Origin: Nanobdellota archaeon
Lineage (GTDB): Archaea > Nanobdellota > Nanobdellia > Pacearchaeales > GW2011-AR1
Direction of reading: 5' to 3'
DNA length: 64,000 nucleotides
NCBI GenBank assembly: GCA_024654505.1
Contig: JANLHN010000003.1
Span: 167,037-231,036, forward strand
Shown piece after piece: positions 897-63,988 of the stretch; the stretch's first letter is position 1; the number at the start of each line of letters is the position of its first letter. A model generated the notes under the pieces. The model searched no databases. It was given only the letters and a program-made list of their open reading frames with translations, and was not told where the DNA came from. The position numbers and the translations under genes were made by a program.

Positions 897-1670
897 TTAT
901 CTGTTTCCTTTAACTTTTTGAAAATAGGGACAGATGTTTTGATAGCCGCAGTAATTACATAGTTGGCTAATGCATGCAGGAAATTCTGTTGCGTTCTCTA
1001 TTCTCGCGATTTTAATCATAACTTCTTCTTGCAATTTGTGGAGCTTTTCTTCCGTTGGTTCAGCAATCACTTGTTGGTTGTGAGCCAGCATATTCCAAAC
1101 GAGTTTTATAGAATTGGCTTCTGGAAAATTATTCCTTGCCCAGATAGAATACATTGCAAGTTGTTTGTCATTTTCAATTTCCCATTGTTCTTTCATTTGG
1201 GAACTTGTTTTATGATCTATAATATAATAATTACCTTCAGAATCTTTAGCAAAAAGATCAATCCGAACATGCCATTCATTGCCATCTGGAAGAGTCATCA
1301 TGTCTCTAGTCTCTAGTCCAATAATTTTTAACTTGTCAAATGGTGTGTGTTTGTCATAATAATCTAATAAGAATTTTTCTCCTTTTTTTCTATAATCGTC
1401 TGGAGTCATATATTCTTTTACAATTAAAATGTCGTCGTTGTATTCATTATCCCATAAGTTATTGTAAAATCTTATAGTTTCTTCTTTAGATAGTTTAAAT
1501 AAAGTTTCAATGGTTTTGTAGAGTTTTTCTAGTGTTTGATGAACTAAATTTCCCATAAATCCTTCAATTGTTGTAGGGAAATCTGGTTTTAGCCAGTCTA
1601 TATACTTCAACTTATATTGATATGGGCACTGTTCAAAAGTGCTTATTTTAGAATGGGAATATCTCGCCAT
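897..1670 (-). CDS. PD-(D/E)XK nuclease with C-terminal Fe-S cysteine cluster (Cas4-like / RecB-family exonuclease)
   Basis: N-terminal SKISTFEQCPYQYKLKY carries the first Cys and the RecB-type motif. A QxxxY motif is present (DKQLAMYSIW). IIDHKTS is a D-x-K-like core. The C-terminus has three Cys (C-x5-C-x2-C: CISQLCNYCGYQNICPY). Together with the N-terminal Cys this is the 4-Cys pattern of Cas4/AddB nucleases. Confidence 0.6.
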   Translation of the reverse strand: MARYSHSKISTFEQCPYQYKLKYIDWLKPDFPTTIEGFMGNLVHQTLEKLYKTIETLFKLSKEETIRFYNNLWDNEYNDDILIVKEYMTPDDYRKKGEKFLLDYYDKHTPFDKLKIIGLETRDMMTLPDGNEWHVRIDLFAKDSEGNYYIIDHKTSSQMKEQWEIENDKQLAMYSIWARNNFPEANSIKLVWNMLAHNQQVIAEPTEEKLHKLQEEVMIKIARIENATEFPACISQLCNYCGYQNICPYFQKVKGNR

Positions 1671-1989: not shown

Positions 1990-2046
1990 CTCCTGATAAA
2001 ATTAGAATAATTAACTTTATATATATTCTGATTTGATAAGATTCAT

Positions 2047-2164
2047 GCGTGGGTAGTATAAAGTAACAAACAAGTTGCTTCGAGAATACAACCCACAAAT
2101 AAATCGCGTGGGTAGTATAAAGTAACGGCATAGCCGTTTCGAGAATACAACCCCCAAATAAATC
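2047..2164 (+). repeat. Two tandem 59-nt units (2047-2105, 2106-2164). Each unit is a copy of the first 14 nt of tRNA-Gly followed by a hairpin module
   Basis: GCGTGGGTAGTATA occurs at 2047, 2106 and 2165, where 2165 is the real tRNA 5' end. Unit 1 hairpin is AAGTAAC-AAACAA-GTTGCTT. Unit 2 hairpin is AAGTAACGGC-ATA-GCCGTTTC. Both units then share CGAGAATACAACCC(A/C)CAAATAAATC. Confidence 0.8.
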
Positions 2165-2236
2165 GCGTGGGTAGTATAGTGGTTATTATTCGACGTTGCC
2201 AACGTTGGGGCCCGGGTTCGATTCCCGGCCCGCGCA
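2165..2236 (+). tRNA. tRNA-Gly (anticodon GCC)
   Basis: Manual fold. Acceptor GCGTGGG/CCCGCGC (one GU pair), discriminator A. Anticodon stem CGACG/CGTTG, loop TTGCCAA. T-arm CCGGG-TTCGATT-CCCGG. 72 nt with no encoded CCA. Confidence 0.8.
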
Positions 2237-2309
2237 TATTGGGGAATCGAACCCTGTGAGAGATTGGCCTCTGAGAGGTCTGCAACTTGTTGCCGAGGCC
2301 CGCGCATAT
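2227..2309 (+). repeat. Direct repeat of the tRNA-Gly 3' end (GGCCCGCGCATAT at 2227-2239 and 2297-2309), flanking a 57-nt segment that contains an inverted T-loop fragment
   Basis: Exact 13-nt duplication spaced 70 nt. The intervening GGGGAATCGAACCC is the reverse complement of a T-arm. Confidence 0.7.
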
Positions 2310-2363
2310 CTATTTTTTATATGAAATCATTACATTTTTAAAGTTCTTTTATTTAGTTATTCA

Positions 2364-3830: not shown

Positions 3831-5416
3831 TCATACCCAGACATATTGCTGAGGGTGCCAGGTCTTCCTTGAGATTTTCTTGCTGCAATAACATCATCGA
3901 TTCGGAGAATCATTATTGCGACTTCGCTTGCAGAAGCTATTGCTTGTGTTTTGACTTTTAACGGCTCGATGATTCCTTTCATCATAGTATCTTCAATCTT
4001 CCCTGTGAAGAGGTTTAATCCTGCATTTCGATTATTTGCGTCATGACTTGCCCTTAGTTCTGTTAAAACGTCAATAGGGTCCATTCCTGCGTTTTCTGCA
4101 AGGGTTCTTGGGATAAACTCCATAGCCGAAGCAAATTCTTCAACAGCCAATCTTTCTCTTCCCCTGAGGGTATTTGCAAATTCTTTTAGTCTTTTACATA
4201 ATTCTATTTCAACCGCCCCCCCACCAGCAACAACTTTTGAATCTTCCATTGTAGATGCAACATCTCCCAAGGCATCACGAATGGCTCTTTCTACTTCGTC
4301 AATAACGTGGTCTGTTCCCCCACGGATTAGAATTGTTAGTGCTTTTGGATTTTTACAACCCATAATATATGTCATTCCCTCTCCACCCTCTTTTCTTTCC
4401 TCAACATATGCGGCAAACCCTAAATCTTCCTCCCTTAGTTCAGTTAATTTAGAAACCACTCTAGCTCCTGTGGCTTTTGAAAGGCTTTGCATATCTTTTT
4501 TTGAAACCCTTCTAACTACATAAATTCCTGCCCTTGCTAGATAAAATTGAACCAGCTCATCAATCCCTTTTTGAACAATTAGAACGTTTGCTCCAGAATT
4601 TTTTATTTTTTCTACTTTAGATTTAAGGAGGGAGTCTTCTTGATTCATGAAACTTTGTAATTGTTCTGGTGTGGAAATTGAGAGTCTTGTCTCTGTCTCG
4701 AGCCCTTTTATTTCTAGGGCCTCTTCTACAAGAGCAATTTTGGCATTTTCAACCCTTTTTGGCATTTCGAGATTAACTCTCTCGTTATCTAGAACAATTC
4801 CTTTTATTAATTCGGTATCTTCTAGAGATTTCCCTTTTTGTTTCTCAATCCTTATATCTTCTAAATCTACTTTCCCCTTTTCAGAGACCATCTTTACTGC
4901 TTCAACGATTATCTCGCTGAATTTTTCTCTTAAATACTCTGCCCCCTTTCCTGTCATTGCAGTTTGGGCGATTTTCATTAGTTCTTCTTCAGAATCTATC
5001 TCAACAGACAGCTCTTTTAGGATTATTTGTGCCTTTTCTTCAGCCCACCTATAGCCTCTAGTGATTATTGTAGGATGTATTCCTTGGTCAAGCAATTTTT
5101 CTGCATTCTCAAGGAACTTTCCTGCTAACATTACAGCGGTTGTTGTTCCATCCCCCACCTCTAAATCTTGGGTCTTTGCAATATCTACAATCATTTTTGC
5201 TGCAGGATGTTCAATATCCATCTCTTTGAGAATAGTTACCCCATCATTTGTGATTATAATGTTTCCCACCTTGTCAACCAACATTTTATCCATTCCTTTT
5301 GGACCCAAAGTTGTTTTTACTGTTTCAGCGACGACTCTTGCAGCCAGAATATTGTTCCTTTGTGCATCTCTGCCTAGTATCCGACTACCTTCATTAGAAG
5401 TTATGTTCTCGACCAT
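3827..5416 (-). CDS. ths: Thermosome subunit (group II chaperonin)
   Basis: [33 protein letters not shown] and [13 protein letters not shown] are canonical group II chaperonin motifs. The start was trimmed from 5524 to the MVENITS methionine. A TTATAAA box lies ~25 nt upstream of that ATG, consistent with a leaderless transcript. Confidence 0.9.
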
Positions 5417-10573: not shown

Positions 10574-10743
10574 TTTAAACACCTCCAAAGTTTTTAAATA
10601 GGGTCGCAAAACCTTTATCATTTTAAGTATTAAAAGATTATAAATGTATGTTTTATTTTGGTGTTTGGAAAATTTGGATTGGTTTGGGTTATTACATACA
10701 TTTCAAGACAGCGACGGAGAATTTGTTTTTTTGTTTTTTGGAT

Positions 10744-10829
10744 AAATCCCCGGCCGGCTCACAATTGGTGTACTTCTGCTGAAGCAAATCGAAAGTTCGA
10801 TTCCGATATATTAGAATCCCCCCGGCCAG
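10744..10829. repeat. Imperfect direct repeat of the tRNA-Tyr 3' end region (AATCCCCGGCCGG at 10744 and AATCCCCCCGGCCAG at 10814), with an inverted T-loop-like fragment (AAGTTCGATTCCG) between the copies
   Basis: Same architecture as downstream of tRNA-Gly and tRNA-Val. Confidence 0.5.
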
Positions 10830-10887: not shown

Positions 10888-10945
10888 TTTGTCACCTACG
10901 GAATTCTCATGAAACGGCTATGCCGTTACTTTGAACTACGAAGGG
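10888..10945 (-). repeat. 58-nt unit upstream of tRNA-Tyr. It consists of a copy of the tRNA 5' 15 nt (one mismatch) plus the conserved hairpin module
   Basis: On the minus strand the unit reads CCCTTCGTAGTTCAA + AGTAACGGC-ATA-GCCGTTTC + ATGAGAATTCCGTAGGTGACAAA, then the real tRNA 5' end CCCTCCGTAGTTCAA. The 22-nt core GAAACGGCTATGCCGTTACTT is identical to the one in Gly unit 2. Confidence 0.8.
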
Positions 10946-19415: not shown

Positions 19416-19431
19416 TTATTTTATTTGGATA

Positions 19432-19556
19432 GAGAATGGCCCCACCAAGAATCTTCTCACAAAATGCATTTCACAATTAATATTTTTCTGTTTGATTGTT
19501 CAAAGCGTTTTGTTCGCCTTGGGCACCCAAGTTCGAGAATGGCCCCACCAAGAATC
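19432..19556. repeat. 22-nt direct repeat GAGAATGGCCCCACCAAGAATC (19432-19453 and 19535-19556). It comprises the last 17 nt of tRNA-Val plus 5 flanking nt, duplicated 103 nt downstream
   Basis: Exact match. The intervening segment carries an inverted copy of the tRNA T-arm 5' side (TCGAACTTGGG) inside the hairpin CTTGGGTGCCCAAG. Confidence 0.75.
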
Positions 19557-19614
19557 GAACTTGGGCATTCTCGGTGTAAACGAGATGTTCTGCCATTAGA
19601 CTATGGGGCCATAG
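19544..19614 (-). tRNA. tRNA-Val (anticodon TAC)
   Basis: Reverse-complement fold. Acceptor GGCCCCA/TGGGGCC, discriminator A. Anticodon stem TCTCG/CGAGA, loop TTTACAC. T-arm CCAAG-TTCGATT-CTTGG. 71 nt. Confidence 0.75.
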
Positions 19615-19664
19615 CTCCGTTGTCTTCATGAAACATCTATGATGTTCCTTTAGACTATGGGGCC
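19615..19664 (-). repeat. 50-nt unit upstream of tRNA-Val: a copy of the tRNA 5' 15 nt plus a variant of the conserved hairpin module
   Basis: The minus strand reads GGCCCCATAGTCTAA + AGGAACATC-ATA-GATGTTTCATGAAGACAACGGAGCTAT, then the real tRNA. Here the hairpin stem is AACATC/GATGTT, replacing AACGGC/GCCGTT while keeping pairing. Confidence 0.8.
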
Positions 19665-19734
19665 GTTTAGAGGAGAACAAATTCTTTGCTTTTAAAACTT
19701 ATGATTGGGGAATAGTGATAACATTTAAATAAGA

Positions 19735-43652: not shown

Positions 43653-43699
43653 ACAAACCTTTTAAAGTAACATCAAAGATGTTTCATGTTTAAGGTTTT

Positions 43700-62163: not shown

Positions 62164-62235
62164 GTTAGATACAGAGGATTAGTGTATATAAAATTAATGA
62201 AAAGGTTAAAAAACCTAGTCTTGGTTTGTAAAATA

Positions 62236-62307
62236 AGGACCCGTAGTTTAATGGATAGAATACCAGGTTTCGGCCCTGTTGATGGAGGTTCGATTCCTCC
62301 CGGGTTC
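62236..62307 (+). tRNA. tRNA-Arg (anticodon TCG)
   Basis: Acceptor GGACCCG/CGGGTTC (one GU pair), discriminator G. Anticodon stem CCAGG/CCTG(T), loop TTTCGGC. T-arm GGAGG-TTCGATT-CCTCC. It lacks the flanking repeat units present at the other three tRNAs. Confidence 0.75.
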
Positions 62308-62357
62308 GTCGAAAAACATATATAAAGTAAAAAAGATAAGTTATTCTTGAGGAGATT

Positions 62358-63467
62358 ATGGATAAAAAATTCTTGGCTACGGCAGCAACATTGGCAGGAA
62401 CCATTATTGGTGCGGGAATTCTTGGACTGCCTTATGTTTTTGCTCAATCTGGATTTCTTATTGGACTTTTCTGGTTGATCTGTCTTGGAGCAATTATGCT
62501 TTTTGTTAATTTGTGTTTAGGAGAAGTTACTCTTCGAACAAGAGGGAAACATCAACTTCCTGGTTATGCAGAGAAATATCTTGGAAAGTTCGCCAAAAAA
62601 GTGATGTTCTTTGCCCTAATCTTTGGTATATATTCTGCTCTTCTCGCTTATTTAGTTGGTGAAGGACAAAGTCTTTCTCAACTTCTTCCAGGGAATATAA
62701 ATCCCTTGTTCCTTGGTTTTGGTTTTTGGTTGGTTATGACTTTGTTGCTTCGGGAAGGATTAAAAGGTCTTAAAAAAGTTGAAACTTATGGTGTTCTTGC
62801 AATTATTTTAATTATTGTGGGGGCTTTTGTTTATTTCTTTTCGCAAATAATTCCCTCTAACCTCCTTGTGGTCAATTTTCCTGATTTTGCCGCACCATTT
62901 GGAATACTTTTATTTGCCCTTATGGGATTTACTTCTATTCCAGAATTAAGAAAGGAAATTTATGGAGAAGAGAAACTTTTTAAGAAAGCAATAATTTTGG
63001 GTAGTCTAATTCCTATTATTCTTTATGTTCTATTTGTGATTACATTCATGGGGGTTCTGGGGAATAGTGTAGAAGAGGTTTCCACCCTTTCTTTTGGTCC
63101 TTTAATGGTTATTTTGGGAGTGTTTACTATGTTCACTTCCTATTTCGTCCTGTCTTACTCTTTGAGGGATACTTTCAAATATGATATTAAATTATCTAAG
63201 AGGGTGAGATTTTTTTTAATTTCTATTGTCCCTTTGATATTATATTTTCTTGTCAATTATTTTCAGATTGTGGGTTTTTCCAAGATTTTAGGTATTGGAG
63301 GTGTAGTTTCTGGGGGTTTAATGGGAATTTTGATTTTATTAATCAATAAAAAGTCTAAAAAGATGGGGAAAAGAAAGCCCGAGATTAAAATTCCCCTTAA
63401 TTGGTTATCTATAATTCTTCTTATTATTGTGTTTACTGCAGGAGTCTTTTTAGAGTTTTTTCACTAA
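62358..63467 (+). CDS. Amino-acid permease (aromatic amino acid / HAAAP-like transporter family)
   Basis: N-terminal ATLAGTIIGAGILGLPYVFAQSGF is typical of Tyr/Trp-specific permease-family transporters. About 11 TM segments. Confidence 0.65.
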   Translation: MDKKFLATAATLAGTIIGAGILGLPYVFAQSGFLIGLFWLICLGAIMLFVNLCLGEVTLRTRGKHQLPGYAEKYLGKFAKKVMFFALIFGIYSALLAYLVGEGQSLSQLLPGNINPLFLGFGFWLVMTLLLREGLKGLKKVETYGVLAIILIIVGAFVYFFSQIIPSNLLVVNFPDFAAPFGILLFALMGFTSIPELRKEIYGEEKLFKKAIILGSLIPIILYVLFVITFMGVLGNSVEEVSTLSFGPLMVILGVFTMFTSYFVLSYSLRDTFKYDIKLSKRVRFFLISIVPLILYFLVNYFQIVGFSKILGIGGVVSGGLMGILILLINKKSKKMGKRKPEIKIPLNWLSIILLIIVFTAGVFLEFFH

Positions 63468-63548
63468 AAACTTCTTTCAATAAGTTTTTAAAGTAAGTTC
63501 AAAGAACTTTCATAGAAAAACTTCTTTCAATAAGTTTTTAAACCCATT
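63466..63548. repeat. Two tandem copies of the AAAAACTTCTTTCAATAAGTTTTTAAA hairpin repeat downstream of the permease gene
   Basis: Copies start at 63466 and 63518. Same family as 42283. Confidence 0.6.
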
Positions 63549-63628: not shown

Positions 63629-63988
63629 ATGAAGTTATATGTAGGAAATCTACCATGGAGTATTGATGATGCTGGTTTGAAGGAACTTTTTGCGGCTTAT
63701 GGAGTCGAAGAAGCAAATCTTATCACAGATAAGTACTCTCACAGGTCTAAAGGTTTTGGTTTTGTAACAATTGCAGATGACGCAGAAGCTAAGAAGGCTA
63801 TGTCTGAAATGCATGAGAAAGAAGTTGAAGGTCGAAAATTGACAGTCAGTGAAGCTAAACCAATGGTTGCACGAGACTCACCAAGAGGAAATTTTAATAG
63901 ATCTGATTCTGGTTCAAACAAAGCACCTATTGCAAATTCGGAAGAGATTGAAGAAGATTTCGAAGATTCAATGGATGACGAAGATTAA
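63629..63988 (+). CDS. RRM-domain RNA-binding protein with acidic C-terminal tail
   Basis: RNP2 LYVGNL. RNP1 KGFGFVTI. Spacing is typical of a canonical RRM. C-terminus EEIEEDFEDSMDDED. Confidence 0.75.
   Translation: MKLYVGNLPWSIDDAGLKELFAAYGVEEANLITDKYSHRSKGFGFVTIADDAEAKKAMSEMHEKEVEGRKLTVSEAKPMVARDSPRGNFNRSDSGSNKAPIANSEEIEEDFEDSMDDED

Follow-up and report, generated by a model that had tools for sequence, protein, structure and literature searches.

Upstream of the genes for tRNA-Gly, tRNA-Tyr and tRNA-Val in the 64,000-nucleotide (nt) stretch of a Nanobdellota archaeon analysed here (the window), short units are found that are probably insertions of a miniature palindromic DNA element of DPANN archaea of the Woese-, Pace- and Nanoarchaeota type, described here for the first time. 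Each unit begins with a copy of nt 1-13 of the tRNA that follows it (X), continues with a core, AAAG-KAAC-NNN-AWA-NNN'-GTTTC, and a 4-nt link (ATGA or GAGA), and ends with an imperfect complement of X (X') and a spacer that leads to the intact tRNA. The constant part, from here on the module, is a hairpin of about 22-25 nt (AAAG-KAAC-NNN-AWA-NNN'-GTTTC-AYG) with a loop of 3 nt; its lower stem contains a conserved U.U mismatch, and its upper 3 base pairs (bp) vary freely and remain complementary. The element enters as a discrete insertion that duplicates its target, and it can decay or be lost again; the decisive comparison comes from genes of the NYN-domain family.

Empty and filled insertion sites

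Related sequences are designated here by L-numbers, and other genomes were represented by fragments of up to 16 kilobases (kb). Proteins of the well-conserved NYN-domain family usually start with MVKR(I/V)xVYIDG, and a few members add 15 residues that are encoded by the module, SNIKDVSCFPHSSEK. At the DNA level the empty sites of L053 and L054 read ATGG(G/T)AAAAAGAGTTTC, and the filled sites of L014, L009 and L019 read ATGGTAAAAAG[TAAC...GTTTCATGTTTTCCTCATTCTTCAGAAAAAAG]AGTTTC. The alignment of these genes revealed that the filled ones contain exactly 45 nt more, clean and in frame between closely aligning flanks, and that the insertion is accompanied by an 8-nt target duplication, G(T/A)AAAAAG. 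The same site holds decayed copies in L055 and L057 and a partly deleted copy in L056, all of them in frame; therefore the block is translated and not spliced, and it is not universally maintained. Among the best-scoring protein clusters the intact signature peptide is missing in 117 of 120, a few of which show altered N-terminal extensions.

Other loci agree with this picture. A module copy at 63490 of the window is flanked by an exact 27-nt direct duplication (63466-63492 and 63516-63542), and long direct duplications are typical of this locus and of the copies associated with tRNA genes (tRNA-type copies); in the copies associated with mRNAs (mRNA-type copies) no long direct duplication above background was detected. 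Individual tRNA species have a unit in some lineages and lack it in others, with the promoter conserved, as illustrated by tRNA-Val, whose promoter block ATAAGTTTTAAAAGCA is common to the unit-less gene of L015 and the unit-bearing genes of the window and L046. Clean empty and filled orthologous sites, the general mark of an insertion element, are thus present at the NYN gene, and tRNA-Val genes with and without the unit share their promoter.

The units in the window

The units, the boxes and tRNA genes that accompany them, the unit-less tRNA-Arg locus used for comparison and the two module copies away from tRNA genes are the following.

2016-2023, plus strand: TATA-like box TTTATATA, read from the sequence, 23 nt before the first X of the tRNA-Gly locus
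2047-2105, plus strand: Gly unit 1, 59 nt; X 2047-2059, degenerate core 2060-2081, link GAGA, X' ATACAACCCAC 2086-2096, spacer AAATAAATC
2106-2164, plus strand: Gly unit 2, 59 nt; X 2106-2118, core hairpin 2119-2140, link GAGA 2141-2144, X' ATACAACCCCC 2145-2155, spacer 2156-2164
2165-2236, plus strand: tRNA-Gly(GCC), ARAGORN; Rfam 59.2 bits
10817-10887, minus strand: tRNA-Tyr(GTA), ARAGORN and Rfam
10888-10945, minus strand: Tyr unit, 58 nt; X 10933-10945, core 10911-10932, link ATGA, X' GAATTCCGTAGG 10895-10906, spacer TGACAAA
10971-10978, minus strand: TATA-like box CTTAAAAA, 25 nt before the Tyr unit
19540-19610, minus strand: tRNA-Val(TAC), ARAGORN and Rfam
19611-19664, minus strand: Val unit, 54 nt; X 19652-19664, core 19630-19651 (GGAAC variant), link ATGA, X' AGACAACGGAGC 19614-19625, spacer TAT
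19690-19697, minus strand: TATA box TTTTAAAA, 25 nt upstream of the Val unit
43664-43685, plus strand: module copy between an unannotated open reading frame (ORF) and the aIF2-gamma gene, 49.3 bits
62205-62308, plus strand: unit-less tRNA-Arg locus, tRNA 62237-62308, TATA box GTTAAAAA 24 nt before the mature 5' end
63490-63511, within the region 63466-63542, plus strand: module copy with a C-G pair flipped to G-C, 41.1 bits

An earlier reading made from the sequence alone (the sequence-only reading) had described two 59-nt units before tRNA-Gly and one 58-nt unit before tRNA-Tyr, copies of the respective tRNA 5' end at the start of every unit, and a tRNA-Arg gene lacking such a unit; all of these are present in the window, the X of the Tyr unit differing from its own tRNA by 1 mismatch. 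The Val unit, which it gave as 50 nt (19615-19664), is in fact 54 nt long. The 22-mer that it considered identical between Gly unit 2 and the Tyr unit is indeed shared as AAAGTAACGGCATAGCCGTTTC; the sequence that it wrote down has 21 nt. The tRNA-specific complement of X that ends every unit, the two module copies distant from tRNA genes and the partial duplication of the 3' end of all three tRNAs downstream had escaped it.

At the Gly locus GCGTGGGTAGTATA occurs three times with a period of 59 nt, and the two units share 85% identity. The covariance-model score of Gly unit 1 is merely 13.2 bits, compared with 41.4, 43.3 and 45.3 bits for Gly unit 2 and the Tyr and Val units, so its core is considered to have decayed. 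A degenerate pattern of the module matches 4 sites in the window versus 0.30 expected, and at least 4 sites were reached in 0 of 100 shuffles. The Rfam scan of the window returned the four tRNAs and nothing else. The hairpin that follows next after the module copy at 43664-43685 is TTTAAGG...CCTTAAA. In the assembly GCA_024653565.1, from the same or a near-identical genome, the sequence of the window is split over JANLIK010000005.1 and JANLIK010000019.1; extending the sequence beyond the window yielded no additional tRNAs.

Structure of the units

The sample of tRNA-type units comprises 13 distinct ones, 4 in the window and 9 in related sequences, and all 13 adopt one common fold, a long hairpin. 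It consists of a basal X:X' stem with a single mismatch opposite A9, then a 4-bp stem made with the D-stem strand, an internal loop, and the core hairpin at the tip. The spacer from X' to the tRNA measures about 3-11 nt across units, and the insert between the copies of X 41-48 nt. The units of the window fold with z-scores from -2.8 to -6.3 (Gly unit 1 -6.3, with a predicted energy of -17.9 kcal/mol, Gly unit 2 -3.45, Tyr -2.84 and Val -3.82).

The pairing of X with X' is specific for each unit: the duplex energy is on average -10.5 kcal/mol with the own partner versus -5.8 kcal/mol with the partners of other units (permutation p<5e-5), and the preference holds for the acceptor part alone (p=0.0026). 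Positions 10-13 are Watson-Crick pairs in 49 of 52 cells and position 8 in 12 of the 13 units, position 9 is an A.A mismatch in 9 of 13, and the outer positions decay; nt 1-2 of X are identical to the tRNA in spite of being unpaired with X'. X' was not copied from the 3' strands of the tRNA, since at position 4-69, a G.U pair in the tRNA, it has A (Gly unit 1, Tyr and Asp); likewise, its D-stem 3' strand differs from the real tRNA nt 22-25.

The compensatory changes that the sequence-only reading had seen in the hairpin hold well beyond the window, the inner stem being complementary in 45 of 45 archaeal copies. Within 35 distinct copies all 7 pairs are formed in every case, and 3 pairs change on both sides (17 cells) with none broken, which 0 of 500 shuffles reach; most columns of this comparison are fixed by the search pattern, and few independent events lie behind the counts. 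In the basal stems G.U pairs are not in excess over A.C (7 versus 13), so these stems give no strand-specific evidence for selection at the RNA level.

Distribution and genomic contexts

Copies were sought with a semi-degenerate pattern in genomes, metagenome contigs and viral contigs. The search found 8 copies in genomes of Nanoarchaeota, Woesearchaeota and Pacearchaeota and 37 in metagenome contigs, and these 45 archaeal copies all lie in DPANN-type contexts; the 5 chance matches in bacteria had a complementary inner stem in 0 of 5 cases. The viral contigs gave no match to the pattern, and a viral origin was rejected. No module-like site was present inside 16S or 23S rRNA, and mimicry of rRNA was discarded on this ground. 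At gathering as well as permissive thresholds only tRNA and rRNA families of Rfam matched, with none for the hairpin, and no equivalent element is described in the searchable literature or in Rfam 15.

The module is not specific to tRNA genes. The sequence-only reading had linked it to adjacent tRNA 5' ends, and had named its wide occurrence away from tRNA fragments as what would speak against a structured element; most copies do lie elsewhere, in mRNA 5' regions, rRNA spacers and even coding sequence, and this weakens a tRNA-specific RNA function. The tRNAs that carry it in a leader are those for Tyr, Val, Asp, Gln (two anticodons), Glu, Ser and Gly. In rRNA operons it is found in the spacer between tRNA-Ala and 23S rRNA (L049) and upstream of the 23S gene (L034), and in mRNA 5' regions it precedes the genes for L6, S17e, aIF2-gamma, SBDS and FtsZ and, as read by eye, those for S2 and a class II aminoacyl-tRNA synthetase. 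With the exception of one independent context, it has the same orientation as the tRNA or gene that lies downstream. An antisense module with its own 6-bp basal stem is located inside an intron of about 95-98 nt of a tRNA (L026 28-198; L030 1546-1720, a minus-strand tRNA); ARAGORN calls it tRNA-Ser(TGA), the anticodon region is CTTATA, and the identity of this tRNA is uncertain. A conserved noncoding region of about 400 nt (L022 400-1200; L027 1-700, minus strand; L032) contains the module followed by the blocks GAGCATTTTGCTCTTGACTAA ... AACAAGAGTRAAGTG; it had no match in Rfam and may represent a noncoding RNA not yet described.

Promoters and probable leaders

In unit-bearing genes a TATA box (YTTTAAAA or TTTATATA) is located about 23-24 nt before the first X, and in unit-less stand-alone tRNA genes, tRNA-Arg included, about 23-24 nt before the mature 5' end (62205-62308 of the window and loci in L013, L015, L016, L023 and L036). 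In 15 of 23 loci a TATA-like 7-mer has its first base at -33 to -28, and most of the others have near variants. Since the two spacings are equal, the unit is probably a transcribed structured 5' leader that begins at the transcription start, and the arrangement suggests a leaderless type of tRNA gene in this lineage, as in Nanoarchaeum equitans.

Thermodynamic folding predicts two nearly iso-energetic conformers of the pre-tRNA. In one of them X is paired with X' and the cloverleaf is formed; in the other X' is paired with the 5' strand of the tRNA itself and the upstream X with the 3' acceptor strand, a pairing that is also predicted in the minimum-energy structure of several loci. The order of transcription would favour the conformer with the X:X' stem and the cloverleaf.

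An endonuclease able to remove a 5' leader is suggested by the presence of a gene for RNase P p30 in a relative (L055, adjoining the NYN gene), by the tRNA-Val and tRNA-Glu genes of L016, only 2 nt apart, and by the tRNA-Ala gene located within the rRNA spacer of L049. These same three observations leave an absence of RNase P unsupported. Many archaea encode the RNase P subunit Rpp29 between the genes for L29 and S17; in L006 it is not at this position, and the ORF found there reads by eye as SUI1-like. In this ribosomal-protein operon of L006 (Nanoarchaeota; 686-1030 and 3859-4191) another ORF, of 114 amino acids and unassigned to a family, lies between L23 and L2. The NYN-domain (LabA/DUF88) gene lies directly 5' of the gene with the RNase P p30 domain in L055 (66-965) and also in L053 (1501-2350); the pairing of these genes raises the possibility that the NYN nuclease is linked to tRNA processing.

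A proposed route of insertion and the points that weigh against it

A course of events can be proposed in which the tRNA genes would originally have been transcribed without a leader. Insertion of the element behind nt 13, together with duplication of nt 1-13, would have kept the promoter and the normal start upstream, and indeed the distance from the TATA box to the first X is unchanged at about 23-24 nt; 54-118 nt of structured leader would thereby precede the intact tRNA. The transcript would begin with X and fold X:X' into a long hairpin capped by the module, and the leader would be cut at the tRNA 5' end, presumably by RNase P. X' would be able to pair with either copy of X, so the leader could in principle compete with folding of the tRNA; pairing of X with X' during transcription would neutralise this competition.

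The sequence-only reading had considered the units either scars of an integrating element, with the hairpin as the arm of a larger element, or a tRNA-linked structured RNA. From the former view the insertion with target duplication stands; attachment-site scars of an integrase do not, given inserts of 41-48 nt, no integrase nearby and no distant repeats, and the hairpin is not an arm but the inserted element itself. From the latter the structured 5' leader is very probably right, and the link of the module to tRNA genes is not.

Several points weigh against reading the units as a mobile element. No transposase, mobilising gene or autonomous copy was found, and the target duplications of 8, 13-15 and 27 nt fit no single known transposase. 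Copies appear to be few in the other genomes, where each GTDB representative has 1-2 strict matches. The duplication begins exactly at nt 1 of the tRNA in all 13 tRNA units, and because of this regularity a staggered DNA cut alone is insufficient; likewise X' cannot simply travel with the element, since it is target-specific. The footprint could possibly have originated by template switching seeded by the hairpin, or by selection for the basal stem. Very divergent lineages and different contexts share an identical 22-nt core, in which three diverged NYN orthologues show no synonymous change over 8 codons; for these reasons the core is probably recognised by a conserved factor, be it the mobilising enzyme or an RNA-binding protein of the host, and the hairpin possibly has a host function. 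Finally, transcription of the units, the start site and the cleavage by RNase P are all deduced from sequence.

Alternative explanations

The same conservation is one argument for a host motif, that is, a cis-regulatory or processing RNA hairpin bound by a conserved protein, in which X, X' and X would form an alternative-pairing switch: X' would lie on the upstream X and free the tRNA to fold, or else sequester the tRNA 5' strand, and the motif would couple tRNA output to a factor acting on rRNA spacers and mRNAs of translation genes. We consider this unlikely, though several observations favour it. Only compensatory changes are seen in the core; copies are enriched beside the genes for tRNAs, 23S rRNA, L6, S17e, aIF2-gamma, SBDS and FtsZ and, with one independent exception, are co-oriented with the downstream gene, although this co-orientation could stem from the direction of replication, and the one exceptional copy is antisense. 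The hairpin that follows an mRNA-type copy has one strand in common with the basal stem (p=0.005 and p<5e-5), tRNA-Tyr and tRNA-Val carry units in three lineages each with X following the substitutions of the tRNA itself, the A.A mismatch opposite A9 is conserved, and the conformers of the pre-tRNA are predicted to be nearly iso-energetic. Nevertheless, in some lineages the NYN copies have decayed or been deleted and the majority of orthologues have none, G.U pairs do not exceed A.C pairs in the basal stems, no candidate binding protein was identified, and the hairpin is neither a K-turn nor a match to any Rfam family. Inspection of the alignment excluded the K-turn, and with it an L7Ae site: position 2b is U or G instead of A, and the 3' strand has GA in some tRNA-type copies only and GU in mRNA-type copies. 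A more elaborate version, in which the hairpin would be the recognition site for a conserved protein that acts in trans in these reduced archaea, and X / anti-X / X a protein-operated switch that folds or traps the pre-tRNA, the whole being a domesticated mobile module that co-regulates tRNA, rRNA and ribosomal-protein transcripts, we consider quite unlikely; we know of no leader-encoded control of tRNA maturation of this sort.

Three other explanations concern the tRNA-type units, and each is far less probable. Integrase scars, with the tRNA 5' 13-15 nt (and the 3' end) as attachment core and the element later deleted to a stub, would account for the direct repeats of tRNA ends that flank inserts on the 5' and 3' sides, for the 3' flank of an identical tRNA-Tyr that is wholly different in two close strains, as at an integration hot spot, and for the second copy of X in L040, followed by a 110-nt insert with its own TATA box. 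A tRNA fragment and a tRNA gene that bracket an inserted recombinase gene are moreover a known arrangement (PMC4033280). In the units, direct repeats identical to part of the tRNA are present (13-15 nt at the 5' side, 10-22 nt at the 3' side), but the copies of X are 41-48 nt apart with no element body or integrase between them. A single architecture in 9 tRNA species is not expected of random decay, the hairpin also inserts in non-tRNA targets with unrelated duplications, and the X'-to-X spacing of 3-11 nt is unlike a recombinase core site. A Pfam scan of the flanking ORFs revealed no integrase or other mobile-element gene beside the three tRNAs, there are no further copies of attachment-like repeats within the 64 kb, and viral contigs lack the hairpin pattern, all of which makes such scars extremely unlikely. 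A degenerate tandem duplicate of the tRNA gene, with nt 26-65 gone and the acceptor and D stems retained, has some support as the origin of the unit, whose architecture resembles an acceptor stem joined to a D stem (two nt are unpaired opposite U8 and A9) and whose spacers are short, as between tandem tRNAs. This origin is still most improbable, since X' follows the Watson-Crick complement of X and not the real 3' strands of the tRNA, and the same deletion and the same foreign hairpin would be needed in 9 tRNA species.

An intervening sequence, in which the upstream X would be the true 5' exon of a leaderless transcript and the module, X', the spacer and the downstream X would be excised without need of a 5' endonuclease, has only a minute chance of being correct. 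The promoter does place the presumed start precisely on the first nt of the upstream X, this X matches the tRNA at nt 1-2 despite no pairing with X', and several loci are predicted to pair it with the tRNA 3' acceptor strand. But a canonical bulge-helix-bulge cannot form: each of the two splice sites is preceded by the same 4 nt, which would need to be self-complementary, the sequences GTTC, GTCT, GTAT and GCAT are not, so that the 4-bp helix fails, and the unpaired AAA faces a strand of 3-4 nt, forming an internal loop and not staggered bulges. Besides, the NYN copies stay in frame through divergence and hence are translated, a relative has the RNase P p30 gene, and the tandem tRNAs and the rRNA-spacer tRNA already need 5' cleavage.

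Other candidates were discarded. Split or permuted tRNA genes do not apply, the tRNA being intact and colinear at every locus. Box C/D or H/ACA guide RNAs do not match the sequences of the internal loop, and what look like ACA and UGA boxes derive from complementarity to tRNA nt 8-11. The module is not a core promoter with AAAG as the end of a TATA box, given the canonical TATA box about 23-24 nt before X and no fixed TATA distance in mRNA-type copies; and a double-stranded operator for a dimeric regulator is contradicted by the inner 3 bp, which vary in a strictly complementary way.

The 3' flanks and neighbouring genes

All three unit-bearing tRNA genes of the window are followed directly by an exact antisense copy of the T-arm; the tRNA 3' end then recurs 57-81 nt downstream, over 13 nt in Gly and 22 nt in Val and approximately in Tyr.

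2237-2318, plus strand: trailer of tRNA-Gly; exact T-arm antisense 2242-2254 (13 nt), 3'-end copy GGCCCGCGCATAT 2297-2309, T-run 2313-2318
10738-10816, minus strand: flank of tRNA-Tyr; approximate 3'-end copy at about 10747-10757, after TTGTGAG
19428-19539, minus strand: flank of tRNA-Val; exact 22-nt 3'-end copy at 19432-19453

The motif TTGTGAG precedes the 3'-end copy in Tyr, Val and L040. A self-contained structure in the trailers was ruled out, as these alone are not unusually structured (z about 0; Gly -0.2). A small palindrome of the Gly trailer, GCAACTTGTT (2282-2291), is the exact complement of the degenerate core AACAAGTTGC of Gly unit 1 (2069-2078) and is followed by CGAG and the 3'-end copy; this trailer may hold a decayed element. 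In L041 (6877-7334) and L044 (138-640) the sequences are identical through the unit and tRNA-Tyr (137 nt), unrelated right after the tRNA 3' end, and followed by different genes, so to judge from the sequence the tRNA 3' end looks like a recombination hot spot. The 3'-flank repeats may reflect a separate recombination phenomenon or decayed elements. At tRNA-Gln(CTG) of L040 (661-1080) the insertions appear to be layered: besides a module unit, this locus carries another copy, 16 nt long, of the start of the tRNA, and an insert of 110 nt that contains T-runs and has its own TATA box 23 nt ahead of the real tRNA. A block of about 51 nt, consisting of the 3' end and the trailer, is duplicated there as well.

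Two neighbouring genes of the window deserve mention. A PD-(D/E)XK nuclease with weak similarity to Cas4 (897-1670, minus strand) adjoins the tRNA-Gly locus, with no established link to the insertions. An RRM-domain RNA-binding protein (RNP-1 KGFGFV; 63632-63988, plus strand) is encoded just 3' of the module copy at 63490; proteins of this canonical type are uncommon in archaea.

Significance and comparison with known systems

If the units are insertions, they add to the DPANN archaea, in which little is known of mobile DNA, a novel and very small family of insertional palindromes, one that behaves like the selfish palindromes of Rickettsia, entering coding sequence in frame, RNA genes and spacers. 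Its footprint, a direct and an inverted copy of the flank counted from tRNA nt 1, is unusual and points to a mechanism beyond known transposases. Leaderless tRNA promoters in the style of Nanoarchaeum would be widespread in Woese- and Pacearchaeota, with some genes converted to leader-bearing ones, which would offer a natural test case for 5' processing in these lineages. For annotation, the units create false signals of partial tRNAs and may be annotated as extra N-terminal peptides.

Leaderless transcription of tRNA genes is said to have been reported for Nanoarchaeum equitans by Randau and co-workers in 2008. The likeness lies in a promoter box at a fixed distance that places the start at tRNA nt 1; the difference is that N. 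equitans has neither RNase P nor leaders, whereas leaders of 54-118 nt and, in a relative, a gene for an RNase P protein are found here. At the integration sites of archaeal viruses and plasmids in tRNA genes, too, the inserted DNA is bracketed by direct repeats of a tRNA end. The known cases are of kilobase scale, carry an integrase and mostly use the 3' part of the tRNA, in contrast with the inserts of 41-48 nt described here, located at the 5' end, without integrase and also in non-tRNA targets.

The REP/BIME sequences (RAYT) and the palindromes derived from IS200/IS605 are, like the module, imperfect palindromes of 20-40 nt with a conserved mismatch, mostly intergenic, in strand-specific orientation and able to form single-strand hairpins. 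REP elements carry a GTAG or CGTC head (PMC3733652). Here the head is AAAG in 35 of 35 aligned copies and target duplications are present, whereas REP elements have no target duplication, are usually species-specific and of high copy number, and have a cognate RAYT gene; among the ORFs scanned in the 64-kb window and in the fragments of other genomes there is no gene for RAYT, TnpA or a Y1 transposase. Correia/NEMIS and other MITEs are non-autonomous mini-insertions flanked by target duplications too, co-transcribed with their neighbours as hairpins prone to processing. However, their duplications have a fixed length and their terminal inverted repeats match a known transposase; the present element, with duplications of 8, 13-15 and 27 nt, is scarcely more than one hairpin, and the combination of fixed-length duplication and terminal inverted repeats is not found in it.

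The Rickettsia palindromic elements (RPE), reportedly described by Ogata and co-workers in 2000, are a further case for comparison. In both cases short palindromic repeats populate the reduced genomes of host-dependent organisms, occur in frame in protein genes as well as in RNA genes and intergenic regions, and are tolerated before they decay. The RPE differ in being bacterial, 100-150 bp long and unrelated in sequence, as opposed to an archaeal element with a core of about 22 nt, and they are not reported with a target duplication of 13-27 nt or an inverted copy of the flank. While it fails the defining features of each of them, the element described here is, in its behaviour, closest to the RPE, REP/RAYT and Correia-type repeats.

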